Shown here piece by piece: positions 15,734 through 41,090 of a stretch of DNA of 64,000 nt. How positions within the stretch are numbered: the stretch's first letter is position 1; each line of letters starts with the position of its first letter. A program made the position numbers and the translations under genes. The DNA lies in contig PLSR01000017.1 of the NCBI GenBank assembly GCA_003164215.1, positions 28,656-92,655 on the forward strand. The letters run 5' to 3'. The notes under the pieces are model-generated. The model was given only the letters and a program-made list of their open reading frames with translations, was not told the origin of the DNA and ran no database searches. This stretch comes from Candidatus Kaiserbacteria bacterium (GTDB lineage: Bacteria > Patescibacteriota > Minisyncoccia > Phycocordibacterales > UBA2100).

Positions 15734-15789
15734 CTACAAAGCTCTGAGCTTTGTAGTTATCCCCAGAAGTCACCAAGCTCTGAGCTTGG
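15734..15789. repeat. intergenic double-hairpin palindromic repeat, copy 1
   Basis: ctacaaagctctgagctttgtag (15734..15756) plus ccaagctctgagcttgg (15773..15789); same family as 17690, 20169 and 41049. Confidence 0.7.
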
Positions 15790-15906
15790 CGCAATTTTGC
15801 TCAGCCCTTGCGTTCGGAGGCTTTTTGATGCATAAATAAATCATTACTACCTAAACCGAAGCAAAAACACGGTTTTAAGCCATTTAATCAATCATTATCC
15901 AAGCGT

Positions 15907-17679
15907 ATGAAAACATCTATAAAGGCAATTTCGCTCGTCGTTCTCTTTTCGGCGGCCATGGTAACGACTGCTTCGGCGCTCGTGAATTACCCCCAGAGCT
16001 GGTATTCAGGTTCGTGCGTGAATCTTTCCCGCGATCTTTCCCGCAGTATGCGCGGCTCTGACGTCTTGAGTTTACAGACGTTCCTCGTCAGTCAGAATTT
16101 TCCGGGCGGTGGCGCATGGATGGAGACGGGTCTCTACGGCGCGGCAACGCAAGCGGCAGTGAGTGATTTCCAACAGGAGCAGAGCTTGCCGACGACGGGC
16201 ATTGCAGATTATACGACACGTAATGCGATCGAGCGCCTCACCTGCGGCGGAGTTGTAGCGTATACGACACCGACGGCAACGACCTACCCGACCACCATTC
16301 CGTGGAACGGATATAGCTCGAATTACCCCTATGGCTACGGCAACCTCGTGAGTCTCAACCTCACCGCGCTCTCTCAGAACACCGGTGCGGTCGGCACGCA
16401 GGTGACGATCTATGGCACCGGCTTCGATCAGACGAATAACACGGTCAACTTCGGTTCGGTCGCCCTGACCAACGTCCCGAGCAACGGTACTTCGATCAGC
16501 TTTATAGTTCCGGCGTACACGATCTCCGGCAACGTGAACATCACCGTTTCGGATTCCCTCGGCACGAGCAACGCGCTCGTCTTCGCCGTCAGCTCGTATG
16601 GGTACGGTTGCGGAACCAATTACTTCTACTCCCCGTACAGCTCAAATAGCGGTTCGTGCGGTTGCGGGAGCACTTATTCGAGCACGCTATACGGCACCAC
16701 CTATCCGTACGGTTACAACACGTCCGGCAATTGCGGAACGACACTTCCGTCGAGCAATCTTACCGCGCCGACCATCGTGTATCTGAACCCGATCTCCGGC
16801 GGCACCGGCACATCGGTCACTGTGCTCGGTTCCGGCTTCACGTCGACCAACAATGCGGTGCACTTCGGTACGGGGGTCATCGGCAATCTCATATCGTCGG
16901 ACGGCCAATCGGTCTCGTTCACCGTACCGACGCAGCTCGTCGGCTTCGGCAGTCAGAACACCGGGCTCGGCGTCTACAATGTATACGTCACCAACGGCGA
17001 CGGTTACTCGACCAGTATCGTGCCCTTTACGGTGACGTCGCTCGGCACCGGCGGCAGCATCGTCTCGGTCAACGGCATCAGCGGTCCGACCTCGATCGCG
17101 CTCGGCACCGTGGGCACGTGGACCGTCACCTTGAACAATCCGAGCAATAGCCTGGTCACGGTCTCGGCCAACTGGGGCGACAGCTCGACATACCCGTACA
17201 ACAACAATCTTTCCGCGCCGCAAACGACGACCGCGCAGGGGATCACGACGCTCTCATTCACACACGTCTATACCGTGAACGGCACCTATACGATCACCAT
17301 AACCGCGACGAACGGCAACGGCACGCCGTCCACTTCTACGATGACGGTCGTGGTCGGTGGTTCGGGTATCTACAACGGTAATGTGCCCGTGATCTCGTAC
17401 CTCGCACCGAATGCCGGCTATGTCGGCACGCAGGTGACGCTCTACGGATCGAATCTCTCAGGTGTGAATACGATCCTCTTCGGAAACGGCGCGATACAGA
17501 ATGTGTATTCTCAGAATGGTGCGAGCTTGACCTTCGCAGTTCCGTCGTACGTCACGGCGTATTGCGCCTCCGGCGTCGCGTGCCCGCAATATGCGCAACA
17601 GATAACGCCCGGTACGTATAACGTCTCGGTCATCGGTACGAACGGCACCAGCAACGCCATTTCGTTCAACGTTCAATAA
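15907..17679 (+). CDS. secreted surface protein with an N-terminal peptidoglycan-binding domain and multiple IPT/TIG-like plus PKD-like Ig-fold repeats
   Basis: Signal peptide. PG_binding_1-like region (GSDVLSLQTFL...GLYGAATQAAVSDFQ). Five repeated units built on G(A/T)xGTQVT(I/L)YG(T/S)GF. PKD-like WGD...THVYTVNGTYTITITATN. Confidence 0.7.
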   Translation: MKTSIKAISLVVLFSAAMVTTASALVNYPQSWYSGSCVNLSRDLSRSMRGSDVLSLQTFLVSQNFPGGGAWMETGLYGAATQAAVSDFQQEQSLPTTGIADYTTRNAIERLTCGGVVAYTTPTATTYPTTIPWNGYSSNYPYGYGNLVSLNLTALSQNTGAVGTQVTIYGTGFDQTNNTVNFGSVALTNVPSNGTSISFIVPAYTISGNVNITVSDSLGTSNALVFAVSSYGYGCGTNYFYSPYSSNSGSCGCGSTYSSTLYGTTYPYGYNTSGNCGTTLPSSNLTAPTIVYLNPISGGTGTSVTVLGSGFTSTNNAVHFGTGVIGNLISSDGQSVSFTVPTQLVGFGSQNTGLGVYNVYVTNGDGYSTSIVPFTVTSLGTGGSIVSVNGISGPTSIALGTVGTWTVTLNNPSNSLVTVSANWGDSSTYPYNNNLSAPQTTTAQGITTLSFTHVYTVNGTYTITITATNGNGTPSTSTMTVVVGGSGIYNGNVPVISYLAPNAGYVGTQVTLYGSNLSGVNTILFGNGAIQNVYSQNGASLTFAVPSYVTAYCASGVACPQYAQQITPGTYNVSVIGTNGTSNAISFNVQ

Positions 17680-17689
17680 CGGCAATGTC

Positions 17690-17750
17690 TGCAAAGCTCA
17701 GAGCTTTGTAGTAATCCACAGAAACCACCAAGCGCTGAGCTTGGTGGTTT
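17690..17750. repeat. intergenic double-hairpin palindromic repeat, copy 2
   Basis: gcaaagctcagagctttgtag plus ccaccaagcgctgagcttggtgg. Confidence 0.7.
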
Positions 17751-18437
17751 GTGGCTATGGCGGCCAAAGCGATACATAATGAGCACATGTGGTTCGTGCG
17801 CGCATACTATCGTTTTGTGATCATCGCGATACTACTCGTCGCGATCGTTGCGGTATGCGCGCCGATCGAAATGCGATTTGCAATGCGGCCCTTCACCTAT
17901 ACATCCATAGCGGATGTTCCGACGGCCGAGGTGGCGATCGTCCCCGGTGCGTCAGTCTTGAATGGTAAGCCATCGCCGGTCCTCTCGGCGCGCGCCGATA
18001 CGGCGATCGAGCTTTTTGAATCGGGCAAAGTATCGAAGATATTGGTCACCGGCGACAACGGGCAACTGAATTACGACGAAGTAACACCGGTCCGCCGCTA
18101 TCTTACGGAGGCAGGTATCCCTGCGGATGATATTTTTCTCGATCACGCCGGCTTCGATACGTACAGCAGCATGTATCGCGCGATCGCCGTGTTCCATGCC
18201 GAGTCGGCGATCATCGTCACACAAGATTTTCATTTGCCGCGAGCTTTATACATCGCACGCCATCTCGGCATGACCGCGTACGGTGTCGTTGCCGAAGGAG
18301 GCGGGTCGCCGCTCGATTATCTGCGCGAGGTACCGGCTTCCGATAAAGCGCTCTTCGATCTTCTTGCACATCGCATTCCGGAGTTCCTCGGCGCACCCTT
18401 TCCGTTGACTGGCAGCGGCACTTCCACGTGGTACTAG
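17751..18437 (+). CDS. DUF218 / SanA-YdcF family protein
   Basis: N-terminal TM. IVPGASV...SKILVTGDNG...DHAGFDTYSSM is the DUF218 signature. Confidence 0.65.
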   Translation: MAMAAKAIHNEHMWFVRAYYRFVIIAILLVAIVAVCAPIEMRFAMRPFTYTSIADVPTAEVAIVPGASVLNGKPSPVLSARADTAIELFESGKVSKILVTGDNGQLNYDEVTPVRRYLTEAGIPADDIFLDHAGFDTYSSMYRAIAVFHAESAIIVTQDFHLPRALYIARHLGMTAYGVVAEGGGSPLDYLREVPASDKALFDLLAHRIPEFLGAPFPLTGSGTSTWY

Positions 18438-18597
18438 GAGAAAACACAAAACCGGCGCATTTCTTCGTTGTCCTTCAAAAAATATCACTCATCATATGAA
18501 ATATATGTCTCGCGATATTTTTCTTGTACGCCTCGAACTGCCTCCGGTTTTGTGTCTTCTCATTGCCCAAACGCGCGAATTGTAGTACAAATCAGCG

Positions 18598-18891
18598 ATG
18601 CAAGTCTCGATCCCGCACAAATATTCGCAAGTGGAGGCCGTCACGCGCGTTAAGAAGGTCTTGAATGAATCGCGCTCTAAGCTAGCCAGCCATCTCACGG
18701 ATGTCGAAGAGAAATGGGAGGGAAATATGCTCCATTTCGCGTTCACCGCGCAGAAGCAGCACATCTCCGGCACGCTCGATGTGAAGGACAAGGTGTTCGA
18801 TCTCTACGCGAAACTACCGCTCACATTGCGCCTTTTTGAAGGCCGCATCGAGGCGATGATCCAAGAGCAGGCGGGGCAAATGCTCGGGTAA
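18598..18891 (+). CDS. putative polyhydroxyalkanoic-acid-system family protein (TIGR02610-like)
   Basis: 97 aa. The pattern MxVxIPHxYS...KWEGNMLHF...ISGTLDV...LPLTLRLFEGRIEAMIQEQ is recalled as matching TIGR02610. Confidence 0.45.
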   Translation: MQVSIPHKYSQVEAVTRVKKVLNESRSKLASHLTDVEEKWEGNMLHFAFTAQKQHISGTLDVKDKVFDLYAKLPLTLRLFEGRIEAMIQEQAGQMLG

Positions 18892-18954
18892 CATTCCGCT
18901 CATGAAGGCCGTATGAACGGCTTTTCTTTTTATTTACATCATATGTAGTAGGAT

Positions 18955-20166
18955 GTGTTCATGAGAAAGAATTACACCCACGTCATACTCGCAGCACTCA
19001 TTCTTTTCGTCGCACCATTCTCCGCTTCCGCCGCGACGACGTTCGAGGTATCGGGATGGATGCCGTACTGGCGCGCTGCGACGAGCACGAACGATGTGTT
19101 ACCGCACTTGAGCGAGCTCACGGAGATCAACCCGTTCGTGTACTCAATGAGCACGATCGGCACGATCATCGACAACGGCCCGATGACATCGGCAGCATGG
19201 ACCGCTATCGTCGCGGCGGCGAAAGCACAAAAAGTCCGTGTCGTGCCGACCATTATGTGGAGCAATGGAACGGCGATCTACAATGTTTTGAGCAACGCGA
19301 AAACTCGTCAGGCATTGGAAACGAATATCGCAAAGCTTGTAAAGACCAACGGTTACGACGGCATCGACATTGACTTTGAGAACAAGACCGCCGCAACGAA
19401 AGATTATTTCTCACTGTTCCTCAAAGGTCTCTATTCGCGGATGGGCAACAAGTTCGTGACCTGCGACATCGAGGCGCGTACGCCGGTCTCCGCCGAATAC
19501 TACGGCACGGATGTCCCCTCAGGCGCCGGAGAATACGCAAACGACTACGTACAGATCAATAAATACTGCGATCGCGTGCATCTCATGACATACGATCAGC
19601 AGACCGTTGATCAACAGCTGGCCGCCGTTGCCGCTTCTTCGTCCGAGCTCTATGCGCCGGTCGCAGATCCAGCATGGGTGGAGGCAGTCGTTGATCTTGC
19701 AAAACAATCCATCAATCCCAAAAAGATCATTGTCGGCATTCCGACCTATGGATACGAGTATCAAGTGACCGCATATGCGAACAGCCAGTATGTCTATGAC
19801 ATTCTCTGGACCTTCGATCCCGGCTATGCCAAACAGATCGAGATGCAATACGGTGTCACGCCCGTGCGCAATGCCGCCGGAGAAATGACGCTGACCTATG
19901 TGCCGTCTTCATCGCCGGCCGCACCGAGCCCCGCTCTCTCGATCGGTTCGATGGATGGGCTCACTGCAGCGGCCGCCGCGAGCTTGTATGCGACGACCTA
20001 TAATTCACATCTTACGTTCAACCTGCTCGACTGGAGCGATGCACAATCGGTCACCGACAAGGTCGCGCTAGCCAAAGCGCTCGGTGTGCGCGGTGTCGCG
20101 CTCTTCGAATTCGACGGCGGTGAAGATCCCGCGATCTGGAACGCGCTTCAAGGCGTCAAAACCTAG
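18955..20166 (+). CDS. secreted glycoside hydrolase family 18 (chitinase / YaaH-like)
   Basis: Signal peptide. GH18 catalytic motif DGIDIDFE (YDGIDIDFENK). Confidence 0.8.
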   Translation: MFMRKNYTHVILAALILFVAPFSASAATTFEVSGWMPYWRAATSTNDVLPHLSELTEINPFVYSMSTIGTIIDNGPMTSAAWTAIVAAAKAQKVRVVPTIMWSNGTAIYNVLSNAKTRQALETNIAKLVKTNGYDGIDIDFENKTAATKDYFSLFLKGLYSRMGNKFVTCDIEARTPVSAEYYGTDVPSGAGEYANDYVQINKYCDRVHLMTYDQQTVDQQLAAVAASSSELYAPVADPAWVEAVVDLAKQSINPKKIIVGIPTYGYEYQVTAYANSQYVYDILWTFDPGYAKQIEMQYGVTPVRNAAGEMTLTYVPSSSPAAPSPALSIGSMDGLTAAAAASLYATTYNSHLTFNLLDWSDAQSVTDKVALAKALGVRGVALFEFDGGEDPAIWNALQGVKT

Positions 20167-20168
20167 GA

Positions 20169-20224
20169 CCTACAAAGCTCAGAGCTTTGTAGTTATCCAC
20201 AGAAGTTACCAAGCTCTGAGCTTG
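20169..20224. repeat. intergenic double-hairpin palindromic repeat, copy 3
   Basis: ctacaaagctcagagctttgtag plus ccaagctctgagcttgg, starting 3 nt after the GH18 stop. Confidence 0.7.
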
Positions 20225-20234
20225 GGGCCGGGGG

Positions 20235-21137
20235 TTGTTTTTTTCTGACATCGTGTACAATGGGGGAACTATGTCTGAAGACGCAATGAATAGGCACACA
20301 CATTCACATTCGCATCAGGATGCCCCGTCGCCACAGCCGTCAGTTGTGACGGCAGCGACCGAGCCGGAGCAGGTCGCGACACCTGTCGCGGCGCCCACAA
20401 AACGCGACTGGAGCAATTTGTACACACCTATCGCAATCGTCGTTGCCGGTATTTTCGTCGCAGGCGGCCTTATGGTCGGACTTTCACATGGTGGAACCGG
20501 GGCCACGGCGGGTACAGCACCTGCCGGCGCACAGGCCGCCGCACCGTCCGTCAACATCAAGGATGTGAAGACCGACGGTGAGTCGTATATCGGCAACGCC
20601 AATGCGCCGGTCGTCATGGCGTTCTGGTCCGACTATCAGTGCCCGTATTGCCGAGCGTTCGAAGTCGGGGGCATTCCGCAGATCACGACACCTGCTGCGT
20701 TTCCTGACATCGTAAAAAATTACGTAGATACCGGAAAGCTCAAAGTCGTTTTCAAAGACTACCAGTTCCTCGGACAGAATTCGATAGACGATGGCGAGTA
20801 TGCTCGCGCGATTTGGACATTATACCCGCAGCAATATTTTGCATGGCGCGAGGCAATGTACAACCAGCAGCCCGAAGAGAACAGTCTAAGCGAGGCGGCG
20901 AACAAGTCACATGTCGAGAAAGTCACGTCGTCGATAACTGGTATCAACTTACAAGCGGTTGAGGCGAATATTGCGAAGAATAAGGCGACCTATGACGCCG
21001 CGATGCAGGCAGACGAGGCAGAAGGCGCGAGCTTCGGTATCCAGGGCACGCCGGGATTCATCATAGGAACGACTTTGATCGCGGGAGCAGAGCCGCTTGC
21101 CACCTTCACGGCCGCGATCGACGCTCAACTTAAGTAA
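20235..21137 (+). CDS. DsbA-like thioredoxin-fold thiol-disulfide oxidoreductase, membrane anchored
   Basis: TM helix then WSDYQCPYCRAF (CPYC active site). True start is probably MSEDAMNRH at 20271. Confidence 0.7.
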   Translation: MFFSDIVYNGGTMSEDAMNRHTHSHSHQDAPSPQPSVVTAATEPEQVATPVAAPTKRDWSNLYTPIAIVVAGIFVAGGLMVGLSHGGTGATAGTAPAGAQAAAPSVNIKDVKTDGESYIGNANAPVVMAFWSDYQCPYCRAFEVGGIPQITTPAAFPDIVKNYVDTGKLKVVFKDYQFLGQNSIDDGEYARAIWTLYPQQYFAWREAMYNQQPEENSLSEAANKSHVEKVTSSITGINLQAVEANIAKNKATYDAAMQADEAEGASFGIQGTPGFIIGTTLIAGAEPLATFTAAIDAQLK

Positions 21138-21229
21138 TTGGTGCATATTTGACGTCGAGATTAAAATAGTGCACAATGGGTCTACGGATGCCTCGAAGGG
21201 GCATTTTCTTTTGAAGCGAAACAATAATT

Positions 21230-23020
21230 ATGGAAATACGAAATATCGCAATAATCGCACACGTTGACCACGGCAAGACGACGCTGACCGATGCACTGAT
21301 GAAGCAGACCGGTGTCGCCGAGGAGGGCGTCTCGATGGACAGCAACACGCTCGAAAAAGAGCGCGGGATCACTATTTACGCCAAGAATGCAGCCGTTTTC
21401 TATAAGGACACCAAGATCAACATTGTCGACACGCCTGGCCACGCTGATTTCGGAAGCGAAGTGGAGCGCGTGCTTCGCTCGATCGACTCGGTTTTGCTCG
21501 TCGTCGATGCACAGGAAGGCCCGATGCCACAGACGCGTTTTGTCTTGAAGAAGTCCTTGGAGCTCGGTCTCAAGCCGATCGTCATCATCAACAAGATAGA
21601 CAAGCCCGCCGCTGATCCTGCACGCTGTGAAGAGCAAGTACTCGAACTTTTTCTTGAGCTCGGCGCTTCCAATGAACAGTCTGATTTTCCAGTCGTCTAT
21701 TCGATCGGGCGACAGGGGATCGCGAGGCTCAAGCTTACGGATGAGTCGACCGATCTCACACCGCTTCTTGATACGATCCTCAAACATGTTCCGCCGGCGT
21801 CTACCGCCGAAGCAGCGGCGAAGCCGTTGCGCGCGCAACCCTTTAATCTCGGCTATGACAATTTCCTCGGACGACTCGCGATCGCGCGCGTCTACGAGGG
21901 AACGCTCAAGACCGGCTCACAAGTCTTCATAAAACATCCATCGTCTCCGACGAGCTCCGGGAAGATCGTCAAAATGTTCACCTTCAGAGGATTGCAAAAG
22001 ATCGAGGCAACCGAAGTTTCCGCGGGCGATATCGTCATGATCGCCGGCCTTCCCGATATTTACATCGGAGAGACGATCACCGATGACCCGGCGACCGAGC
22101 CCTTGGCCGCAATCTCGATCGACGAACCCACCATCACCTTGAATTTCCTCGTCAATAATTCGCCATTCGCGGGGCGGGAAGGTAAATTTGTCACGTCACG
22201 TCAGATCCGTGACCGTCTCGAACGTGAGCTTGAGGTCAACGTCGGTCTCAAAGTAGATTTCGAGAGCGAGGGTGATACCGGATATCGAGTTTCCGGCCGC
22301 GGCGAATTGCACATCGCGATCTTGCTCGAGAACATGCGCCGCGAAGGTTACGAAATGCAGGTCTCACAGCCACAGGTCATTTTCCACGAAGTGGACGGCG
22401 AGAAGCTCGAACCGTTCGAGGAAGTCATCATCGACACACCACAGACCTACCAGGGCGCGATCATCGAGCGCTTGGGCACACGAAAGTTCGTCATGAAGGA
22501 TCTTAAGATCCACGAGAACCAAGTCCGTCTTACCTTCGAAGGACCGACACGCGGACTTCTCGGCTACCGCAACCAATTCGTTCTCGATACGAAAGGCGAG
22601 GGAATCATGTCGTCGCGCGTCGTCGGATTCAAACCGTATGCAGGCGAGATCAAGCGCAAGCAAGTCGGCTCGATGATCTCGATGACCTCCGGCAAGGCGC
22701 TCGGCTTCGCGTTGTGGAATCTTCAGGAGCGCGGCGTTATCTATATCTCTCCGGCAGTTGAGGTATACGAAGGCATGGTCATCGGCAACACCAGCAAGGG
22801 CGAGGAAATGGAGGTCAATCCGACCAAGGGCAAACAACTCACCAACATGCGCGCATCCGGCAGTGACGAAGCGATCAACCTCATCCCGCCGTACACCCTC
22901 ACCATCGAGCGCGGACTCGAAGTTATGGCCGAAGACGAATATCTCGAGATCACTCCGATATCCGTCCGTTTACGCAAAATGTATTTAACCGATCTTGATC
23001 GAGTACGTGCGAGGCGATAA
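21230..23020 (+). CDS. typA: translational GTPase TypA/BipA
   Basis: N-terminal G-domain [18 protein letters not shown] and NKIDK, with EF-G-like domains and the BipA-type C-terminus. Confidence 0.92.
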
Positions 23021-25527: not shown

Positions 25528-26514
25528 ATGATCGAGGAAGCGATCATCGAGCGGGCGCAAAAAGCGATCGATGAACGCGTGTTCCCGGGATGCGTTGTCG
25601 GTGCGGTGTATGCGGATGGCGGGCGCATTATAATTCCACTTGGGTCACTAACCTATGAACGCGTTGCCTCCGAAGTGCGCGCCGCGACCGTGTATGATCT
25701 CGCATCTGTTACGAAATCCATACCTGTCGCATCGCTCGCGCTTGCGTTCACTGCGGAAGGGAAGCTCGCGCTCGCCGATCCTGTGGTCAACCATTTGCCA
25801 GAACTTCAGAACGACTTTGGCACCACGATCGAAGATCTCCTGCGATATCGCGTGCATGGCGTCCAGCTTTCGACCTTGCGTCGTATGACATCTGACGAAA
25901 TTCGAAACTATGTTTTCGAGCGCGGATTCGACGCGCCGCCCGGAGATTCGAACTATACGAATCTTCCCGCATTCGTTCTCGGGATGATCATTGAACGGGT
26001 CGGTGGTGCGTCGCTTGAAACACTTGGTCGATCATATTTCTTCGATCGATTCGATATGCCTGCGACAACATTCTTCCCGGATGCTGCAGATTGCGCTCCG
26101 ACGGAGGTCGACGAACGCGGTGAAGTACGCGGATCGCCGCATGATGAGAGCGCGTATCAATTCGCGATCGCACACGCATGCGCGGGACATGCAGGACTTT
26201 TTTCTACCGTTCCCGACCTCTTGAATTTTCTCGAAGCGCTGCTACGCGCAGACGATGGATTTACGAAATCCATCATGGACGCTGCGGAGGCAGGGCTCGG
26301 TTGGCAAATCGAGGGGGATTTTTTAGGTCATTACGCAGACGTTCGTGCGTTCGGCAAAACAGGATTCACCGGCACCAGTGTCTGTATCGATCCAACCAAA
26401 GGTATCGCGTTCGTCATACTTTCCAATTGTACGTATCCCAAGCGACCGGCGGATAATGCGGCAATAAATTCGTTTCGATCGGACATTGCCGACATCATTC
26501 TCGGATCTATTTAA
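25528..26514 (+). CDS. beta-lactamase-family serine hydrolase (class C / PBP4*-like)
   Basis: SxxK motif in LASVTKSIPVASL and the Transpeptidase/beta-lactamase fold (YTNLPAFVLG, HAGLFST, KTGFTGTS). Confidence 0.8.
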   Translation: MIEEAIIERAQKAIDERVFPGCVVGAVYADGGRIIIPLGSLTYERVASEVRAATVYDLASVTKSIPVASLALAFTAEGKLALADPVVNHLPELQNDFGTTIEDLLRYRVHGVQLSTLRRMTSDEIRNYVFERGFDAPPGDSNYTNLPAFVLGMIIERVGGASLETLGRSYFFDRFDMPATTFFPDAADCAPTEVDERGEVRGSPHDESAYQFAIAHACAGHAGLFSTVPDLLNFLEALLRADDGFTKSIMDAAEAGLGWQIEGDFLGHYADVRAFGKTGFTGTSVCIDPTKGIAFVILSNCTYPKRPADNAAINSFRSDIADIILGSI

Positions 26515-28276
26515 CCGTCACGCTTTTGGCGATGTTGCGCGGCTTGTCCACGTTGTGATCAAGTTCGACCGCCATGTAGTAGGCAAGTAATTGCAAGGGG
26601 ATGATGTTGAGGATCGCGCTCGTCTCCTTGGTATCGGGGACTGCCAGAAATTCATCGAAGTTCTCGTCCGTCTGTGGGGCGATGCCGAAAACTGACGCGC
26701 CTCGGGCGCGAACTTCGTGTATCGCGTTCAATACGCTCGCGCGCACTTCGTCGTTGCTGACCGCCGTGATTACCGAGACCCCCGGCGCCATCAACGTTAT
26801 CGCATAATGTTTGAGGTCTCCCGCAGGGATCGCGTGAGCATGTACGTACGAACCCTCGATGATCTTCACCATACCTTCGCGGATGATCTGCAGGTTCTGA
26901 CCTTTACCCAAGAGATAGAGATGTTCTTTGTGCGCTAGACGTGACGCATGGCCCCTCACTTTGGCAATGAATTTGTCATCCGCGAGCAGTTTCTCGGTCT
27001 CGGTCGCCAGCTTTTTGAGATTTCGTTTTCCCTCGGCCAATTTTCCCTCGACTGCCTTCGCGACGAGGTACCCCCACGCGATCTGCGACACGAAGATCTT
27101 CGTCGACATGACACAGATCTCGGGGCCGGCATTCGCCATGAACTTATGATCCGACAGACGCGTCATCATACTGCCCGGCATATTCACGAAGCTCGCGATG
27201 GTAGCCCTGCGAGCATGTACCAGTTCGAGTACTTCGAGCACATCGGCTGTTTCGCCGCTCTGCGACGGCGCGATGAGAACGTCGCCCTTACTGATCAATG
27301 ATTTGTATTCAAACGCTTCGGCTCCGATGAGCTCCTTTGCGTCGATATGTCCATAAAGCCGAAGATAAAATGCCATTTGCGCTGCTGCGGCACCGGCAGT
27401 ACCCGAACCGATCGTATAGACGCGCCGCGCCCGTTTGATCGCTCGCGCGAGCGCGAGATACGTAGCATCCGATTCTTTGATGACCTGCCGAATGACGAAC
27501 GGCGCCTCGTAGATCTCTTTGAGCATGTAGTGATCATAGGCACCTTTTGAAACCACCACATCTTTGAGGAGGTTTTTTTCATAGACCTGCTTGATCTTCT
27601 TACCGGTCGCAATGCTCGACAGCGTAATCGCTCTTTCACGCACGGCAACCATCTCTCCGTTGTCCAACACGAGGATGGACTTCACGTGGGGGGCGCATGA
27701 GAATACGTCAGACGAAAGATAGATTTCCGATGAGGTCCCCAAGCCGAGAACGAGCGGGGAACCATTGCGTGCAGCGATGATCTCGCCACTTTTCGCGAGC
27801 ACAATGATCGTATTGCGTCCTTCGAGATCTTTGAACGACAATCGTACGGCTTCAGAAAGTGTTTTTGCTTTGCGCATGCGCCGCTCGATAAGTCGCACGA
27901 TGACCTCGGTATCTGTTTCCGAAATGAACTTGAACCCGTCTTTTTGAAGTGACGACTTAAGCGCGGGGGCGTTCTCGACGATACCGTTGTGGGCGAGCGC
28001 GAATGACCTGTCGCTCGAATAATGCGGATGCGCGTTCACATCTGTAACTTTGCCGTGCGTCGCCCAACGCGTATGACCGATACCGATGTGACTTCGTGGC
28101 AAACTCCCGGCGTCATAGCCCACGAGCCCGATATGTTTATCAACGCTGATAGATCCATTGCTCACGACGGCGATGCCCCAGCTGTCATATCCGCGGTACT
28201 CGAGTCGCTGTAAACCTTCTAACACTGCTTCGCGCGCATCACGCGCTGCTCCGGCATACCCAAAAATTCCACACAT
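26507..28276 (-). CDS. glmS: glutamine--fructose-6-phosphate aminotransferase
   Basis: N-terminal MCGIFGY (Ntn Cys), two SIS domains and a C-terminal ...VTVK. Confidence 0.93.
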   Translation of the reverse strand: MCGIFGYAGAARDAREAVLEGLQRLEYRGYDSWGIAVVSNGSISVDKHIGLVGYDAGSLPRSHIGIGHTRWATHGKVTDVNAHPHYSSDRSFALAHNGIVENAPALKSSLQKDGFKFISETDTEVIVRLIERRMRKAKTLSEAVRLSFKDLEGRNTIIVLAKSGEIIAARNGSPLVLGLGTSSEIYLSSDVFSCAPHVKSILVLDNGEMVAVRERAITLSSIATGKKIKQVYEKNLLKDVVVSKGAYDHYMLKEIYEAPFVIRQVIKESDATYLALARAIKRARRVYTIGSGTAGAAAAQMAFYLRLYGHIDAKELIGAEAFEYKSLISKGDVLIAPSQSGETADVLEVLELVHARRATIASFVNMPGSMMTRLSDHKFMANAGPEICVMSTKIFVSQIAWGYLVAKAVEGKLAEGKRNLKKLATETEKLLADDKFIAKVRGHASRLAHKEHLYLLGKGQNLQIIREGMVKIIEGSYVHAHAIPAGDLKHYAITLMAPGVSVITAVSNDEVRASVLNAIHEVRARGASVFGIAPQTDENFDEFLAVPDTKETSAILNIIPLQLLAYYMAVELDHNVDKPRNIAKSVTVK

Positions 28277-28617
28277 AGGTGTAAATGGAAGCGCTCCTCA
28301 TCGTCCCTTTGTTTTCGACGTCGCCGTCGGGTTTTTGGGAAGATGTAACGGCCTGGAGTACCGAAGGGTGCCCGCAGATACTACGAAGACGATTGCCTTC
28401 ATGTCCGATCGTCAGTCAAAGTGACTGACCCCTTTCCTCGTATCCCCACGTTCTACGTGGGGCCACACGCTCTCGTTCTTTTTCGCTTCGAAATTATTGC
28501 TTCTAATGCAGGCCGTTCATTCATAACGGCCTTCTTCAACAATAGCGCATATCAAAAAAAACAAAAGCCACCGCACCAAGACAGTACGGTGGCATTCATT
28601 CGTCGTATTCGGGCGAT

Positions 28618-32541: not shown

Positions 32542-33237
32542 GTGGGCATGACAGCAAAACGTCGTGTGGCGGTATTCGATGTCGACGGAACGATATTCCG
32601 ATCATCGTTGCTCGTTCAAGTCGTCGATCAATTGATCCGCGATGGCGTATTCCCGGAAGATGCGCAGGCGACCTACGCGCGGCAGCTCGAGCGGTGGCAG
32701 AATCGCGAAGGGGACTACGAGACGTATATCGACGCCGTCGTCAAAGCATTTACCCAGCACATCGTCGGCGCGCATTATAGTGCCCTCGCGGACGCATCGA
32801 AGCGTGTCGTCGCCGCACAGTGGAAACGCACCTACGTCTATCCGCGCACCCTCATCAAGCAGCTCAAAGATCGCGGTTACTACTTGCTCGCGATCTCGCA
32901 TTCTCCAAAGACCATTCTTGATATGTTCTGCCCGCGACTCGGCTTCGATAAGGTCTACGGACTTTTGTACGAGATCGACGGTGATGAAAAATTCACCGGG
33001 AAGATCATAGAGGAACAGGCGCTCGACAAGGCGTACCTCATTCGTCGCGCGGTAGACAAGGAATCCTTGATGCTCACCAACTCGATCGGTGTCGGTGACA
33101 CAGAGAGCGACATAAAGTTCCTCGAGATCGTCGCGAAGCCGATCTGTTTCAATCCCAACGCCGCGCTCTATGCCCATGCGAAAAAAGAGAAGTGGAAAGT
33201 CGTCGTCGAGCGGAAGGATGTTATTTATCAATTATGA
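32542..33237 (+). CDS. HAD-IB family hydrolase (phosphoserine-phosphatase-like)
   Basis: Motif I VAVFDVDGTI and motif IV GVGDTESD. Confidence 0.8.
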   Translation: MGMTAKRRVAVFDVDGTIFRSSLLVQVVDQLIRDGVFPEDAQATYARQLERWQNREGDYETYIDAVVKAFTQHIVGAHYSALADASKRVVAAQWKRTYVYPRTLIKQLKDRGYYLLAISHSPKTILDMFCPRLGFDKVYGLLYEIDGDEKFTGKIIEEQALDKAYLIRRAVDKESLMLTNSIGVGDTESDIKFLEIVAKPICFNPNAALYAHAKKEKWKVVVERKDVIYQL

Positions 33238-34223
33238 GCCGCACGTTACTGAGGCGCTCGGCATATTCTCCCGCCGAACGCCACCTTCGGCTGACGGGTC
33301 CTGGACGAGCTACGAAGGACTCCGCACCAGGCTCTGCAACGGCAGGCGAGGTTCGTCGGAGAGAACATGCCGAGCGCCCCACCCCACCTTCGGTGCGATC
33401 ATTTCAAAACGAAGTTTGGAACTATTGGAAAAAGAACGGGCGGCACGATCTCCCGTGGCGCAAGACCAAAGACCCGTACAAGATCCTTGTTTCAGAGGTG
33501 ATGCTGCAGCAGACGCAGGTGTCTCGGGTGATCGAGAAATACAAGGAATTTCTGCACGCATTTCCGAATGTAGAAACATTGGCGACGTCAAAGCTTAGCG
33601 ATGTGCTGAAAGTCTGGAGCGGAATGGGGTACAACCGGCGCGGAAAATATCTGCGCGATGCGGCGACCACGATCGTTAAGAAGTACGATGGCAAAGTTCC
33701 ACGCGACGTGGCCTCGCTCCGCGCACTTCCCGGTGTCGGTCCGTACACTGCTTCAGCGGTGTTGATCTTCGCGTTCAATATCCCTGACACGATGATCGAG
33801 ACGAATGTCCGTTCCGCGTATATCCAACATTTTTTTAATGCCCCTGCTGCTCTAAGGTTAAACCTTAGAGCACGGATCGCCGACAAAGAACTACTGCCGT
33901 TCATCGAGGCGGCCGCCGAGGGGCAGGATCCGCGGACGTGGCATTGGGCGCTGATGGATTATGGAAGCTATCTCAAGAAACGGCACAAGAACCCATCGCG
34001 TGCGAGCGCACATTACGTGAGGCAATCGAAATTCGAAGGTTCCTTGCGGCAAGTTCGTGGCGCGATTTTGCGCACACTTCACCTGGGGTCGAGAACCGAC
34101 CGCGCGCTAAGCTCCGAGCTTGGCATACAAAGCTCAGAGCTCGGTAAATTTGAAGCGGCACTTGCCGGGCTTGCGCGGGATGGGATGATCGTGAAGCGGA
34201 AGGGGAGGTGGGGAATGTGTTAG
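33234..34223 (+). CDS. MutY-like HhH-GPD DNA glycosylase lacking a 4Fe-4S cluster
   Basis: WNYWKKNGRHDLPWRKTKDPYKILVSEVMLQQTQV...LPGVGPYTASAV matches the MutY/adenine-glycosylase N-terminal domain. ATG at 33234 overlaps the HAD stop (ATGA). Arg-rich 60-aa N-terminal leader, no Cys cluster. The 3' end of the gene contains a partial copy of the intergenic repeat. Confidence 0.7.
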   Translation: MSRTLLRRSAYSPAERHLRLTGPGRATKDSAPGSATAGEVRRREHAERPTPPSVRSFQNEVWNYWKKNGRHDLPWRKTKDPYKILVSEVMLQQTQVSRVIEKYKEFLHAFPNVETLATSKLSDVLKVWSGMGYNRRGKYLRDAATTIVKKYDGKVPRDVASLRALPGVGPYTASAVLIFAFNIPDTMIETNVRSAYIQHFFNAPAALRLNLRARIADKELLPFIEAAAEGQDPRTWHWALMDYGSYLKKRHKNPSRASAHYVRQSKFEGSLRQVRGAILRTLHLGSRTDRALSSELGIQSSELGKFEAALAGLARDGMIVKRKGRWGMC

Positions 34224-36874: not shown

Positions 36875-38728
36875 CTACCGTGATGTGCCGCCGGCAAAGA
36901 TCCCCCACACGCTCTGTGTTTGTGTATACCAATCGTCGATGCCGGAAAAACGATCAGCGGGTGTTGTCAGGGCTCCCAAAGTGATGCCCTTGATTGACGG
37001 AGGAACTATATACAAAAAGTCGGGTGCGTACAAGAAGACTGCAGGCTGATCCTTTTCGACATCGGCGGCGAATTGCGTATAGAGCGCATTACGAGCCGTA
37101 ACATCAGTCGTTGCGCGCGCTTGAGAAAGCAGCGTATCCGTCGTCTCGTTCGCATACATGGCGAGGTTCAACCCCGGGTCATTGCGTTGGGACGAGTGCC
37201 AGAACGCATAGAGGTCGAGCTGGGGTCCGACGACTTCGCCGAAGAGAACGGCGTCGTAATTACGCGGGCGTATGACGGACGTATTGAGCTCGGAGATCGG
37301 ATACACCTGCACCGACGCATGGATCCCTGCAGCGCTCCAAAAATTCGCGACGGCATTCGCGGTCGCGACGAGTTCGGGCTCGTCAGCGGTGGCAAGCGTG
37401 AATGACAATTTTTCTTTTCCTTTCTCCCACATAGTGTCGGTGGTGCTGAAACTCCATCCGCCCTTTTGCAAAAGTGTTCGTGCGGCATTCGCGTACGATG
37501 ATTCATCCGGTGTCGACGAGGAACTCGCCGCCGTGTTCTTCAGCGAGAGGAACGGGAGGGGAACGGCCGGTGCGACATCGCCCAAGATGCCTGGCGGGAT
37601 CGGTCCGTCGAGCTTCACGCCATATCCGCCCAAGACCGACGAGATGATCGCTTGTTTGTCGACGGCAGCATTAAGGGCAGCACGTACGCTTGAATCGGCC
37701 AAGACCACGTTGTGGCCCTGATTGAAGAAAACGCCGAAAACACGCGGCAGCGGCGACTTCACAATGTCAGCGTCGGTGCGTGAGAGGATCGGGAGATCGC
37801 TCGGAGAGATCCCCGCCATGCTGTCGATCTCGCCATCGTTGAACGCCTTCTCCATCGTTGCGTCATCGGGGTAGAAGTGGAACGTGAGCTTGTTCAGATA
37901 GGGAACTCCGCGCGTATAGTCGCCGAATGGCACGAGGTCGTAGCGTGTTGCAGAGCCAGTCGAATCAGTGCTGACCGAAGCAACTTTGAACGGACCGCTA
38001 CCGATCGGACGTGTATTCAGCGGGTCGAACGGGAACTCCTCGTCTGAAACATTTTGCCATAAGTGTTTCGGTAAGATGCCGAGCGTGGTGTTGTCAATGA
38101 ACGGAGCATAGGCATGCGGCAAGGTGAAGACGACGGTGTGCGGATCCGGACTTGCGACGGTAACGCCGGTCCAGTTCGCCGCTTGCGGACTCTTGAGATT
38201 GGGATCTTGTGTTGCGGCGACCGTGAAGAGCACGTCGGCGGCGGTGACCGGTGTGCCATCCTGGAACTTCGCATTCGGTCGGATGGTGAACGTGTAGATC
38301 GTTCCATCGGTAGAGACCGTATACCCCAGCGCGAGATCAGGGACGAACGAACCATCGGGCAGTTGGCGCATAAGGCCGGAATAGACGAGCGCCGTAAGAT
38401 CTTCGTCAGGTTGAGAGACCGTAAGGATCGGGTTGATGAAGCGGGCCGGTCCGACCTCACCCTCAGAGAGAGATCCGCCGCGCGCAGGAATATCGACTGA
38501 TACAGCTCGATCGATGTAGGTGACCATGAGAAGCACGCTCCCGGCGAGTAGCGCGGCAAGCATATACAAAAAGAGACGTTCCGCCGGCGAGAACCGACCG
38601 AGGAGATCCTCGAGTACCGAAAGACGCCCGACTCTGCGGGTCTTGGTGAGCGTCGTCAGGAGATCTTCGTGGCGGTCGTTCGTCTGGTCTATGTGATCTG
38701 ATTGGTCGGGGTCCGAATAGGAATCCAT
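36875..38728 (-). CDS. ABC-transporter-type substrate-binding protein (family 5, peptide/nickel type) with an N-terminal membrane anchor
   Basis: SBP_bac_5-like regions (LTALVYSGLMR, GSGPFK..., W..G.K). No permease or ATPase genes are adjacent. Confidence 0.65.
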   Translation of the reverse strand: MDSYSDPDQSDHIDQTNDRHEDLLTTLTKTRRVGRLSVLEDLLGRFSPAERLFLYMLAALLAGSVLLMVTYIDRAVSVDIPARGGSLSEGEVGPARFINPILTVSQPDEDLTALVYSGLMRQLPDGSFVPDLALGYTVSTDGTIYTFTIRPNAKFQDGTPVTAADVLFTVAATQDPNLKSPQAANWTGVTVASPDPHTVVFTLPHAYAPFIDNTTLGILPKHLWQNVSDEEFPFDPLNTRPIGSGPFKVASVSTDSTGSATRYDLVPFGDYTRGVPYLNKLTFHFYPDDATMEKAFNDGEIDSMAGISPSDLPILSRTDADIVKSPLPRVFGVFFNQGHNVVLADSSVRAALNAAVDKQAIISSVLGGYGVKLDGPIPPGILGDVAPAVPLPFLSLKNTAASSSSTPDESSYANAARTLLQKGGWSFSTTDTMWEKGKEKLSFTLATADEPELVATANAVANFWSAAGIHASVQVYPISELNTSVIRPRNYDAVLFGEVVGPQLDLYAFWHSSQRNDPGLNLAMYANETTDTLLSQARATTDVTARNALYTQFAADVEKDQPAVFLYAPDFLYIVPPSIKGITLGALTTPADRFSGIDDWYTQTQSVWGIFAGGTSR

Positions 38729-38781
38729 ACCGCAGGTTGGCCGGCTTCGTGCATTCGTGTATCGAACGACGAAAGGCGGGC

Positions 38782-39033
38782 TTAACTTATAAGAAGACTT
38801 ACCAATGCTGAAATCGCAAACAGTATACCAAGGATTATGGTCGCGTAGAAGAGTGTTTTCTCTAATCCGCGGCGGGTGTGGAAACCCGAGCTGAAATTAT
38901 CGGCACCGAATGCACCGCCCAGCGATGCCCCCGTCCTCTGCATTATGACAGATACAATGATGAGTGCGGAAAGAATTATCTGCACGTAGGGGAGAACGTG
39001 AGCGATCGTGGCCATGTAGAGCCACTGTAGCAC
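38782..39033 (-). CDS. secG: preprotein translocase subunit SecG
   Basis: 83 aa with two TM helices and the central Gly-rich GASLGGAFGADNFSSG. Confidence 0.75.
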   Translation of the reverse strand: MLQWLYMATIAHVLPYVQIILSALIIVSVIMQRTGASLGGAFGADNFSSGFHTRRGLEKTLFYATIILGILFAISALVSLLIS

Positions 39034-39065
39034 ATAACGACCCCGTTCGCAACTTCGTACATGCT

Positions 39066-40229
39066 ATGATTCCTGCTATGAGTTTTGAATTCCCGGGGCG
39101 CATGGAACGAACGCGAGACGAACCAGAGATCGAACGTGCGAAGCGCGTCGCGGCCTGGTATGGACATTTTCAACACATGATCCAGATCGCAGCGCTGGCC
39201 GCTGCGGTCCAAGCACCGGGGATCGCACATGCGGGAGAGATCGATCAGGCGAATATGGCCCAACATACCGATACTGCACCGTTGTTGCATGAGGCGCCAT
39301 CGACAGGCAAATATCAACTCGCGTCCGGTCAGTGGATTCATATCCCAATGGAAGCGGACGGATTCAATAGAGTGACCGTACTTACATCCCCCGATGGAGG
39401 GCCTGTCGTGCGGGCGGTCATCGTCTTTCAACAAAATCATCTTAATGGCCCCGAGAAGTTGCGCGGGCTATCGAACGAACAGAAGTTAGCGGAGCTTGGT
39501 GCGGTCGAACACAGCCATGAGACTGTCTCTGCGGCGCTTAAAAAGCTGGTGAAGGAGGGAAGTATTACGAGTGTGTGCGCAGAGGGAGTTATCGACAGTC
39601 CCGATGGCAATGGTGCCCATGGCGTCAATGAAATGATCGCAGACTTCTCTGATCCGGAGTCATTCAATACCGTCACTGCCCTTATGGCTGCGCCCTACCT
39701 ACCTTCGCTTCAAGGGGCGGCCACACGGTATAACACGATCATTGATCGGAAAGGTGGGCCCGACGCCGCCGGTATCACAGAGATCAGGACGAAGCTCGAT
39801 CCTATATTCAAAGATATGGGCGAACGATACCCGAAAATTCTCAGTTCAGCTGGTGAGCTAGCCGGGCAGGGTGAGATCGATCTCTGTGCGGGGGTAGATC
39901 AAAAGACCCATGATCGAGCTCACGCGTCGGACGTCCAAAAGATACTGGAGCGGCCACAGGAGCAGCGGACGGCAGCCGAGAAAGAACTGGTGAGGAAGGT
40001 GGCATTTCATGATTGGGAAAAATCGGCCCTCGAGCTCGCGCTCAAACAAAAGGGGCCCGCGGTAGGGATCGAGATCGGGGGAGGGCACGACTTCTATGAA
40101 GTAACAGCGGAGTGGAATAAAGAGCATCCATATGAGCAGATCGTAACGGTCGTAGCGAGTGCCTTTCAATTCGTCCCTCTGAAAAAAGATGGCGGCAAAC
40201 TTTTGACCACTGAAGAACTGACTGAATAG
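39066..40229 (+). CDS. hypothetical protein
   Basis: Long ORF. The listed start at 38964 is antisense to secG, so ATG at 39066 (MIPAMSFEF) is preferred. No recognisable domain. Confidence 0.45.
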   Translation: MIPAMSFEFPGRMERTRDEPEIERAKRVAAWYGHFQHMIQIAALAAAVQAPGIAHAGEIDQANMAQHTDTAPLLHEAPSTGKYQLASGQWIHIPMEADGFNRVTVLTSPDGGPVVRAVIVFQQNHLNGPEKLRGLSNEQKLAELGAVEHSHETVSAALKKLVKEGSITSVCAEGVIDSPDGNGAHGVNEMIADFSDPESFNTVTALMAAPYLPSLQGAATRYNTIIDRKGGPDAAGITEIRTKLDPIFKDMGERYPKILSSAGELAGQGEIDLCAGVDQKTHDRAHASDVQKILERPQEQRTAAEKELVRKVAFHDWEKSALELALKQKGPAVGIEIGGGHDFYEVTAEWNKEHPYEQIVTVVASAFQFVPLKKDGGKLLTTEELTE

Positions 40230-40334
40230 ATCTCGTTTTGCGGAACGTTCAAGGGCGGGCCTTGGATGCAACTCACGAAATATATAAAATGTTCAGCCGC
40301 GGGAGCCTCTGGCTCCCGCGGCGTTTCTCCTCGT

Positions 40335-40571
40335 TCAACGTCGGCGTCTCAATTTCCATACGAGACTGGTGACGGCCGTTGCGATGGCTATCCAGCCGAC
40401 GATAAGGACCTTTTGCGAATCGAGCCCATACGATTCAGATACCCGCGTCAGAAAAGTACCCGCTATTGCGGAAACAAGGGAGATAAAGAATACGAGGATC
40501 GCGGCGCGCATGGCTTGGAACTCCTCAAAGAACTGATTCCATATTGATACACTATATTTACAGTGTGTCAA
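40335..40571 (-). CDS. small membrane protein
   Basis: 78 aa with two TM helices and an RRRR tail. Confidence 0.35.
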   Translation of the reverse strand: MTHCKYSVSIWNQFFEEFQAMRAAILVFFISLVSAIAGTFLTRVSESYGLDSQKVLIVGWIAIATAVTSLVWKLRRRR

Positions 40572-40600
40572 GTTGAGTCTTACCGCCCAATCCTCTATAG
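40572..40600 (+). promoter_or_regulatory. sigma70-like promoter for groES-groEL: TTGAGT, 17-nt spacer, TATAGT
   Basis: TTGAGT at 40572..40577 and TATAGT at 40595..40600. No CIRCE inverted repeat was seen. Confidence 0.45.
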
Positions 40601-40663
40601 TGACCCCATCGCCACTCTGGTGGCATTCCAGTTATTAGTTTTTTAAAAGATACGAGCATCGTT

Positions 40664-41032
40664 ATGAAAAAGAAATCAAAAGTTTCTAAGAAGTCGAGCG
40701 CGCGAAAAGTGAGCCGCCCGTCACAGCCGAAGAGTTCTTTTAAAGTCCACCCATTGGCTGATCGTATCGTCGTGAAGCCCGAGGAGGCAATGGATGAACG
40801 ATCACCGTCCGGCATCATTATTCCTGACACCGCCCGCAAAGAGAAGCCGGAACGCGGTGTCGTCGTTGCGGTCGGCGAGGGTAAGCGCAACGAGCGTGGT
40901 GATGTATTGCCGATCCACGTTAAGGTTGGCGACACGGTCATGTTCTCCAAATATGGATTCGATGAGGTGAAGATCGATGATGTGGAGTATTACATTGTTT
41001 CGGAGACGAATATTCTGGCAATTATAAAGTAG
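40664..41032 (+). CDS. groES: co-chaperonin GroES with a Lys/Ser-rich N-terminal extension
   Basis: HPLADRIVVKP...GIIIPDTA...VVAVGEG...GDTVMFSKYG. Confidence 0.9.
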   Translation: MKKKSKVSKKSSARKVSRPSQPKSSFKVHPLADRIVVKPEEAMDERSPSGIIIPDTARKEKPERGVVVAVGEGKRNERGDVLPIHVKVGDTVMFSKYGFDEVKIDDVEYYIVSETNILAIIK

Positions 41033-41048
41033 TAGAAGATTAAACGAA

Positions 41049-41090
41049 CCAAGGTCAGAGCTTGGGATCCCTAAAGCTCTGAGCTTGGTG
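41049..41090. repeat. intergenic double-hairpin palindromic repeat, copy 4 (between groES and groEL, hairpins in swapped order)
   Basis: ccaaggtcagagcttgg plus ctaaagctctgagcttgg. Confidence 0.65.

Follow-up and report, generated by a model that had tools for sequence, protein, structure and literature searches.

Pairs of short palindromes recur between the genes of a 64-kb stretch of contig PLSR01000017.1 of a Candidatus Kaiserbacteria bacterium (the whole stretch of 64,000 nucleotides is called the window below), and one pair lies in the groES-groEL spacer. What are these elements, and what places and maintains them? The genomes of bacteria of the candidate phyla radiation (CPR) are known to be streamlined, very small and poor in mobile elements, and repetitive extragenic palindromes (REPs) and REP-associated tyrosine transposases (RAYTs) have been studied mainly in Proteobacteria. 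The original prediction, made from the letters of the window, had described double-hairpin repeats at four intergenic sites and had considered small mobile palindromes, similar to REPs or to miniature inverted-repeat transposable elements (MITEs), as well as elements of RNA processing or stability. We regard the sites, with a probability of about 0.85, as a GTAG-tagged REP family with REPIN-like long-hairpin forms, upheld by a cognate RAYT in a Kaiserbacteria-like host (Paceibacteria, CPR). The repeat family, its structure and covariation, its link in three lineages to a RAYT-like gene, the synteny of this gene and the gain and loss of copies were observed directly.

Repeat sites in the window

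The core of the family is a 13-nt palindrome, AAGCTC-N-GAGCTT (AAGCTCNGAGCTT). With at most one mismatch it was present ten times in the window, against 0.13 expected matches, and none of 100 shuffles reached ten. The core palindromes are invariably paired, at five sites (15739/15775, 17694/17730, 20175/20211, 34109/34130 and 41051/41074), and an nhmmer profile from 13 copies found these five sites alone in the 64 kb (Table 1). The predicted double-hairpin repeats are present at their intergenic sites, with some corrections in detail. Three of the four intergenic copies are alike. These type A copies, units of about 56-66 nt, constitute one 59-nt family with 85-93 % identity over the 59-nt alignment, whereas the copy between groES and groEL has another architecture, a single long hairpin (type B). 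The second hairpin at 17730 has an imperfect core (AAGCGCTGAGCTT), though its stem is longer.

As had been claimed, the intergenic copies lie between co-directional genes of the plus strand, the groES-groEL spacer included, according to open reading frames (ORFs) and Pfam matches. They start 4-17 nt after the upstream stop codons. The genes flanking the sites, all on the plus strand by Pfam, code for an S41 peptidase, a peptidoglycan-binding (PG-binding) protein, a DUF218 protein, a GH18 protein, a DsbA-like protein, BipA, a HhH-GPD glycosylase, GroES and GroEL (groES 40664-41032, groEL 41102-42748, both Pfam-confirmed).

Table 1. Sites of the repeat family in the window, with the positions of their hairpins and their distance to neighbouring genes.
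Feature	Position	Strand	Detection	Predicted fold	Hairpin 1 (GTAG)	Hairpin 2	Placement
Type A REP unit	15734..15789	+	nhmmer E 7e-23	-26.6 kcal/mol, z -3.6	15734-15756 (15753-15756)	core 15773-15789	12 nt 3' of the stop of the S41-peptidase gene (14373-15722)
Type A REP unit	17689..17754	+	nhmmer E 2e-21	-38.1 kcal/mol, z -6.1	17689-17711 (17708-17711)	longer form 17716-17754	10 nt 3' of the stop of the PG-binding protein gene (15907-17679)
Type A REP unit	20170..20225	+	nhmmer E 3e-23		20170-20192 (20189-20192)	core 20209-20225	4 nt 3' of the stop of the GH18 gene (18955-20166), 5' of the DsbA-like gene
Type B element, groES-groEL spacer	41049..41088	+		-27.3 kcal/mol, z -6.1			starts 17 nt past the groES stop, ends 13 nt ahead of the groEL start
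REP-derived in-frame segment, MutY-like gene	34107..34147	+	nhmmer profile, core-palindrome pair

In the copy at 15734, hairpin 1 reads CTACAAAGCTC-T-GAGCTTTGTAG with the GTAG tag included; the linker TTATCCCCAGAAGTCA and the hairpin 2 core CCAAGCTCTGAGCTTGG follow, and the outer right arm is missing. The copy at 17689 has hairpin 2 in the longer form CCACAGAAACCACCAAGCGC-T-GAGCTTGGTGGTTTGTGG. The type B element of about 40 nt has the sequence CCAAGGTCAGAGCTTGGG-ATC-CCTAAAGCTCTGAGCTTGG; its two core palindromes, 23 nt apart, make up one long REPIN-like hairpin centred on GGGATCC. The segment in the MutY-like gene is a type-B-like derivative with its core palindromes 21 nt apart.

Architecture and covariation of the unit

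The type A unit begins with a short hairpin, (C)TACAAAGCTC-N-GAGCTTTGTA(G), which ends in GTAG, and continues over the linker TTATCCNCAGAANNNA into a hairpin around CCAAGCTC-N-GAGCTTGG. In full-length copies outside the window the linker proved to be the left arm, and TAACTTCTGTGGATAA the right arm, of a long hairpin. The full unit consists of three parts: the short hairpin, GTAG and a long imperfect hairpin, TTATCCACAGAAGTTACCAAGCTC-N-GAGCTTGGTAACTTCTGTGGATAA. Part of the right arm of the long hairpin was kept in the window by the copy at 17689 only; the other two type A copies end directly after GAGCTTGG. Many copies are truncated or rearranged derivatives of the full unit, the type B double palindrome among them. 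A long hairpin of two inverted halves occurs in the full-length copies L016r, L036 and L047 (9911-9963) and in type B copies; within the window this form is limited to 17716-17754 and 41049-41088. The predicted single-strand folds of the intergenic copies are stable, with -26 to -38 kcal/mol and z scores of -3.6 to -6.1.

Nineteen copies of two lineages, that of the window and that of a sister genome described below, were aligned in register (alignment A4). Directly 5' of the long hairpin, the tag positions G19, T20 and G22 do not vary, and A21 is conserved to at least 90 %. Pairing amounts to 95 % in hairpin 1, 90 % in the inner stem of hairpin 2 and 58 % in its outer stem, the latter because many copies are truncated. 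Ten pairs have changed on both sides, and overall pairing is 75.8 %, against at most 44 % with the partners slid. The compensatory changes are lineage-level events, and therefore the number of independent events is small.

Occurrence in other genomes and metagenomes

The family would have been in doubt if the motif were confined to the window and not conserved. Further copies were found in the same organism, in other metagenome-assembled genomes (MAGs) and in metagenomes. When 185,579 species genomes were scanned for the two-palindrome pattern, the family turned up in one MAG alone, C24_bin-1043 (CAINVT01). Its copies, three of type A and two of type B, share 86-98 % identity with those of the window (type A 91-98 %, type B 86-91 %). 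The copy in the groES-groEL spacer is 91 % identical to the type B copy of L005 and 86 % to that of L025. The repeat loci of C24_bin-1043 contain no other DNA matching the window. The linker pattern, searched for in JGI metagenomes, brought seven further type A copies, all new and independent, and also recovered the window's own locus at 15734 (L035). Viral contigs with the repeat were not found in a check for a phage origin. Proteins of the window occur on contigs as long as 218 kb.

Several other matches were rejected. Two-palindrome matches in MAGs of Verrucomicrobiales, Myxococcota, Accumulibacter, Bacteroidales, Anaerolineales and Pirellulales are tandem arrays with a period of 21 or 42 nt; these arrays with AAGCTCNGAGCTT (L003, L004, L006, L008, L011, L013-L015, L017-L020, L022, L024) are probably heptad-repeat coding sequences, unrelated to the REP family. 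Paludibacter MAGs and one Bacteroidetes MAG have a conserved two-palindrome locus in common, and single sites occur in Paenibacillaceae and Dialister; both were judged unrelated, as they have no linker or GTAG unit. The metagenome matches L028, L033 and L037 are chance matches to the linker pattern. On another Kaiserbacteria-like contig, L053, a different palindromic family, CGAAGCAATCCAGAAT...CTGGATTGCTTCG, was present in three copies within 16 kb (7280-7311, 9785-9852, 12765-12832); related lineages may carry REP-like families of their own.

A RAYT-like transposase flanked by the repeats

In C24_bin-1043 (L016), two inverted type A copies enclose an ORF of 240 amino acids, P0001, with the motifs YHVYNRG, MPNHFHLV, LFQGRY and YVHLNP. 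It matches Pfam Y1_Tnp (PF01797) with 44.6 bits at a cutoff of 23, and its best NCBIfam family is REP_Tyr_transpos (REP-associated tyrosine transposase, NF047646) with 42.8 bits; IS200 gave 22.7 bits. At E <= 1e-10 the protein has 1,420 relatives, and those with names belong to Paceibacterota, Parcubacteria, Patescibacteria and Adlerbacteria. An 80 % identical protein, P0002, is encoded on a 70-kb contig (L039) of ERZ27254231, the window's own sample. P0002 was also present in ERZ27248668, a sample which holds a GroEL identical to that of the window. A third protein, P0005, of the sister genome GCA_035541295.1 (Candidatus Paceibacterota), is 66 % identical to P0001 and 64 % to P0002. P0002 and P0005 scored 42.6 and 43.2 bits on Y1_Tnp and 42.7 and 47.6 bits on REP_Tyr_transpos, while IS200 gave 17 bits or no match.

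The HUH motif (H93-F94-H95) is near-invariant among 43 homologues, as are two tyrosines 50-60 residues past HUH, Y146 and, in the YVHLNP motif, Y153; by analogy, one of these two would be the catalytic residue. A model of the RAYT by AlphaFold2 (pLDDT 88.5, pTM 0.86) had as its top Foldseek match in the PDB the chain 4ER8_A, the TnpAREP of E. coli bound to a REP hairpin (E 4.9e-6). The TnpA proteins of IS608 and ISDra2 came next (E 2e-4 to 1e-3).

Contig L039 has 52.7 % GC and contains ten core palindromes at seven sites in 20.7 kb. One type A copy among these is reversed, others are truncated and degenerate, and the RAYT gene is flanked by two copies of a long form. In the long form, about 80 additional nt are inserted into a type A unit; such copies stand on either side of the RAYT in L039 to L044. 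The two long forms of L039 are 88 % identical over the insert region (blastn, 79 nt). The insert itself (L039 9839-9921 and 10732-10810, partial match L038 1301-1337) has a hairpin of its own, CGAAATGAAAA...TTTTCATTTCG, sits between GTAGTTATCAC and TTATCCACAGAA, is bounded by TTATC/TTGTC...TTATC and was seen in the two RAYT-flanking copies only. It could be a nested element or a regulatory region of the RAYT.

The repeats reach to the end of the transposase gene or close to it. The stop codon of P0002 is a TGA in the hairpin 1 loop of the downstream long-form copy, which overlaps the gene end; in C24_bin-1043 (L016) the stop is the TAG of GTAG, and in the sister genome (L047) the gene ends about 15 nt short of a repeat remnant. 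A rule that the RAYT stop is always the TAG of GTAG was therefore rejected, as it is true in C24_bin-1043 only.

The gene neighbourhood is alike in L039, L040, L047 and L048: a beta-lactamase-like gene, a TPR-like gene, the RAYT, an LCAT-like gene and rplJ-rplL. The RAYT gene is thus chromosomal, at a conserved position, vertically inherited and not part of an insertion sequence, and tnpB is not adjacent. A short metagenome contig, L045 (JGI Ga0334836_080258, 1,067 bp), matches window 20046-20223 with 100 % identity over its positions 1-178; it then runs on, by way of the repeat, into the upstream region of the RAYT. L045 is an assembly join caused by the REP and ties the locus of the window and the RAYT locus to one population; its reading as a polymorphic insert of 81 nt was rejected, since the contig joins through the repeat to window 20046-20223.

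Orthologous sites in the sister genome

In the sister genome, P0005 (on contig L047) occupies the syntenic RAYT position, and a second contig, L049, is syntenic with the window; shared proteins are 60-92 % identical in both comparisons. AAGCTC-N-GAGCTT has zero occurrences in GCA_035541295.1. Its repeat has the same architecture with a changed core, AGATC-N-GATCT, and reads TACAGAGATC-N-GATCTCTGTA-G-TTATCCCCAGAATTTACATAGATC-N-GATCTATGTAAATTCTGGGGATAA. At least eight sites of this family lie within 20 kb, and copies at L047 9911-9983 and 10689-10763 flank the RAYT. Between the repeats of the window and the sister two stem base pairs were swapped compensatorily, orthologous sites included.

Individual junctions are filled or empty. 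Between the GH18 and DsbA-like genes the window has a type A copy and L049 has none, the downstream ACATCGTGTACAATG being conserved nonetheless. The junction after SelR is filled in L049 and an empty spacer of 22 nt in the window. The groES-groEL spacer is filled in both, with conserved flanks; L049 and L050 hold the orthologous copy with the core of the other lineage, and all six differences that the two palindromes show between the window and L049 are at lineage-diagnostic positions. The element 3' of rplL lies between the same flanks in both lineages, and its hairpin 1 differs by two diagnostic compensatory pairs only. Of the more distantly related contigs, L055 has an empty groES-groEL spacer of 23 nt, and L052, L053 and L054 have unrelated hairpins in it. 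The latter were not called REPs, as dispersed copies could not be demonstrated within the 10-16 kb examined. From these comparisons, the junctions GH18-DsbA, SelR and groES-groEL would indicate mobility or turnover of the copies.

The groEL gene next to the repeat differs from its surroundings. GroEL of the window (41102-42748) and of L049 (15711-17369) are 78 % identical, while GroES reaches 90 % and other neighbours 85-92 %; GroEL proteins of more distant relatives are 83-87 % identical to that of the window. L049 is the closest relative on all other shared proteins; GroEL is an outlier. One possibility is that groEL was recombined or replaced, with a breakpoint at the repeat-bearing spacer.

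Further observations were made in the window. A terminator-like or leader hairpin 5' of bipA, GGATGCCTCGAAGGGGCATTTTCTTTTGAA, is nearly identical in the window (21186-21206) and L049 (about 2480-2510), while the surrounding spacer is not. A glmS ribozyme (RF00234, 52.6 bits) at 28289-28482 of the minus strand lies directly 5' of glmS (26507-28276, minus strand); GlmS of the window is 34 % identical to that of the sister, whose gene is on the opposite strand (L049 5677-7497), which suggests a replacement of glmS at a syntenic position. Between groEL and LemA, an ORF of 1,976 amino acids (43061-48991, plus strand) with no Pfam match on record is missing at the position in L049, and a closer relative has a product of more than 4,000 amino acids there; the ORF contains a direct repeat of 110 nt with 85 % identity (46087-46196 and 46240-46349). 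An Rfam LOOT RNA (RF03000) was found at 289-404 on the plus strand with 64.8 bits at a gathering score of 46.4 bits.

In-frame copies in a MutY-like glycosylase

A partial copy had been noted at the 3' end of the MutY-like gene. It is present, and its description is corrected here: the REP-derived segment lies in frame within the gene of a MutY-like A/G-specific adenine glycosylase (33234-34223) and encodes SSELGIQSSELG. This peptide is located in a hypervariable linker ahead of a conserved C-terminal motif, and the segment is common to the two closest homologues only. In the MutY gene of L049, a complete type A copy lies in antisense orientation (L049 10528-10600); it is read in frame as 25 amino acids, in a variable loop different from that of the window.

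Homologues from several Paceibacteria, P0125, P0126, P0127 and P0128 (alignment A3), have differing in-frame insertions in two variable loops, and the inserted peptides read like translated palindromic repeats (SVDNYKDLTFV, KSPQGLTSV twice, SYPQKLP, VDNYRDLTSV). SYPQKLP and VDNYRDLTSV are examples of homologue peptides that would translate the repeats of their own lineage; in the DNA itself, such an insertion was confirmed for L049 alone. The MutY-like gene looks like a recurrent landing site.

Origin and maintenance of the family

Most likely, the REP family is generated and kept homogeneous in trans by the cognate RAYT, whose gene, located at another place in the genome, is in turn bordered by repeats, an arrangement known as REPtron. 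RAYT catalysis and REP transposition in this organism are predicted by analogy. The REP hairpins would fold in single-stranded DNA, such as that at replication forks. The RAYT would recognise hairpin and GTAG, cleave and rejoin, and REPs would be copied or replaced. Copies would persist where they are tolerated: just past stop codons, in an operon spacer, and in frame in a variable protein loop. As a likely secondary effect, the transcribed hairpins would change the stability or processing of mRNA 3' ends, groES-groEL included. The REP-like reading, one of those put forward at the outset, agrees with the dispersed, GTAG-tagged copies just past stops and with the flanking of a RAYT-type Y1/HUH transposase by the family in related contigs, including one of the window's own sample. 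All testable features of GTAG-type REP/RAYT systems were found, except for a score above the NCBIfam equivalog cutoff.

Some points weigh against a RAYT-driven REP family. The GTAG is not simply unpaired, as its GTA doubles as the 3' end of the hairpin 1 stem. The transposases stay below the equivalog cutoff of NF047646 (42.7-47.6 versus 80 bits), though this is their best-scoring family; the sub-cutoff score marks a divergent RAYT clade. The fold match to 4ER8 has a modest TM-score (0.42/0.59), and a sequence search of the PDB gave nothing by phmmer and, by profile, a marginal match to the HUH region of ISDra2 (E 0.07). The RAYT of the window's lineage is flanked by direct long-form repeats and not by the inverted pairs typical of REPtrons. 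The RAYT gene is absent from the 64-kb window, and we infer its place in the same genome from shared samples, GC, shared repeats, the chimeric contig L045 and the synteny with the binned sister MAG. GTAG-type REPs often number more than 100 per genome. The repeat density of about 12 sites in 85 kb comes from the window (5 sites in 64 kb) and L039 (7 sites in 20.7 kb) alone, so that any genome-wide copy number is an extrapolation.

A more specific process is conceivable, although we consider it rather doubtful: the RAYT may overwrite resident copies in place (copy correction). It was considered because copies at orthologous sites predating the split of the lineages (groES-groEL, rplL) carry the current master sequence of each lineage, and at these sites exactly the diagnostic compensatory base pairs were changed. 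Further, and equally tentative, the groES-groEL copy may persist because its hairpin took on a role in setting how much GroES is expressed relative to GroEL, the genome having very few regulators.

The hairpins might instead be primarily RNA elements of the host, namely 3'-end stabilisers, RNase sites or tail-less terminators, selected site by site and uncoupling groES from groEL, with an incidental link to the transposase. The position of the intergenic copies between co-directional genes 4-17 nt past the stop codon is compatible with such a role, as are the stable folds, the retention of the groES-groEL copy at the orthologous site of the sister lineage and the different hairpins in this spacer of other relatives; in published work, such roles were ascribed to REPs. 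This explanation is nevertheless improbable. Relative to their flanking genes the copies point either way, and one lies in frame in a coding gene; the near-identical sequence at unrelated loci and in other organisms is unexplained by independent selection at each site, and the RAYT is flanked by the family in three lineages. The sites match no Rfam family; a mir-345 match was spurious with 26 bits against a cutoff of 65 bits. Intrinsic terminators were flagged at none of the three type A sites in a scan of 14000-22000 (the copy at 41049 lies outside of the scanned range), and a T-run follows the 20170 copy only, set apart by GGCCGGGGGTTG, consistent with the original view that these are not simple terminators. 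The RNA-element reading is compatible with the family as a secondary function, not as its origin, and by analogy with E. coli REPs an effect of the transcribed hairpins at the RNA level, especially in groES-groEL, is plausible.

Very unlikely is an origin as MITEs, that is, as deletion derivatives of a DDE insertion sequence that moved via terminal inverted repeats and made target-site duplications. Small size, palindromic structure, dispersal and variable presence would be shared with MITEs, but matching flanks of at least 4 nt were present in two of six copies, compared to 26 % at random positions. The duplications looked for on the suggestion of the original prediction thus show no excess over chance and leave the MITE reading unsupported. 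No DDE transposase was seen adjoining any copy, the flanked gene codes for a Y1/HUH enzyme, and the ragged ends and truncations at internal points are a pattern typical of REPs.

Least probable of all are operators of a dimeric DNA-binding regulator, such as a CIRCE-like heat-shock operator at groESL: paired perfect 6-N-6 palindromes, one pair in the chaperonin operon, may resemble operators, but the sites are 3' of genes and not at promoters, CIRCE (TTAGCACTC-N9-GAGTGCTAA, upstream of groES) has no match in the window even with three mismatches, the conserved unit runs far past the palindrome (GTAG, linker, long stem), one copy is in frame in a coding region, and the lineages differ by compensatory changes, which would be expected of a folded single strand.

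Relation to known REP systems

The RAYT-upheld REP family proposed here resembles the GTAG-type REPs with RAYT/TnpAREP of E. coli (REP/BIME with YafM, PDB 4ER8), Pseudomonas and Stenotrophomonas, which are described in the reference sources Nunvar 2010 (PMC2817692), Di Nocera 2013 (PMC3733652) and Quentin 2018 (PMC6006769). Published GTAG REPs have a 5' foot GT[AG]G, lie less than 20 bp from the 3' end of the upstream ORF, may provide TAG as stop, include in-frame copies in DNA-repair genes and are associated with REPtrons (PMC3733652; PMC6006769). Common to both are short imperfect palindromes with GTAG at the foot of a hairpin, dispersed mostly just 3' of ORFs between co-directional genes, with some copies supplying the stop codon and occasional in-frame copies in DNA-repair genes. 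The repeat-flanked Y1/HUH gene at a conserved chromosomal position and the own repeat variant of each related lineage are as in REPtrons. Unlike known GTAG REPs, these reside in a CPR (Kaiserbacteria-like) host and in a composite unit, whose GTAG also forms the 3' end of an additional small hairpin that precedes the long one. The RAYT, with about 230-240 amino acids, is longer than the 165 amino acids of the 4ER8 chain of E. coli TnpAREP and falls below the NCBIfam equivalog cutoff. The direct long-form flanks with the insert of about 80 nt set the RAYT of the window's lineage apart from known REPtrons.

Full-length and type B copies fold as one hairpin of two inverted halves, like REPINs (Bertels and Rainey 2011, PMC3116915), whereas many copies here are singlets or truncated. 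With REPORTH, REPINs at conserved positions were observed to change to match the resident RAYT (bioRxiv 10.1101/2024.10.14.618302). The orthologous copies in groES-groEL and 3' of rplL, with the own consensus of each lineage, follow this pattern, at a much deeper divergence (proteins 60-92 % identical) than in those within-species comparisons. The Y1/HUH fold is shared with the TnpA of IS200/IS605 elements (IS608, ISDra2), and recognition of hairpins on single-stranded DNA would be expected. Unlike an IS200/IS605 transposase gene, this one has housekeeping genes on both sides, keeps its syntenic position across diverged genomes and has no adjacent tnpB, and its NCBIfam scores for IS200 are far below those for RAYT.

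Our literature search found no paper linking REP, RAYT or REPIN to CPR/Patescibacteria. Systems of this kind are well known; new is the occurrence in an uncultured Kaiserbacteria-like (CPR) bacterium with a tiny genome. Unusual in detail are the composite hairpin-GTAG-hairpin unit, the longer RAYT, the direct long-form flanks and the orthologous copies with the lineage consensus at deep divergence. For annotation and binning of CPR MAGs the repeats are a warning, since they lead to joins in assemblies (L045), provide stop codons and enter genes such as mutY in frame. In this Kaiserbacteria-like CPR host, the dense REP population and the RAYT with its conserved synteny support the view of RAYT-REP pairs as long-term, vertically inherited residents rather than transient parasites, and present an independent case, at much deeper divergence, of REPs at fixed positions that change to match the resident RAYT.

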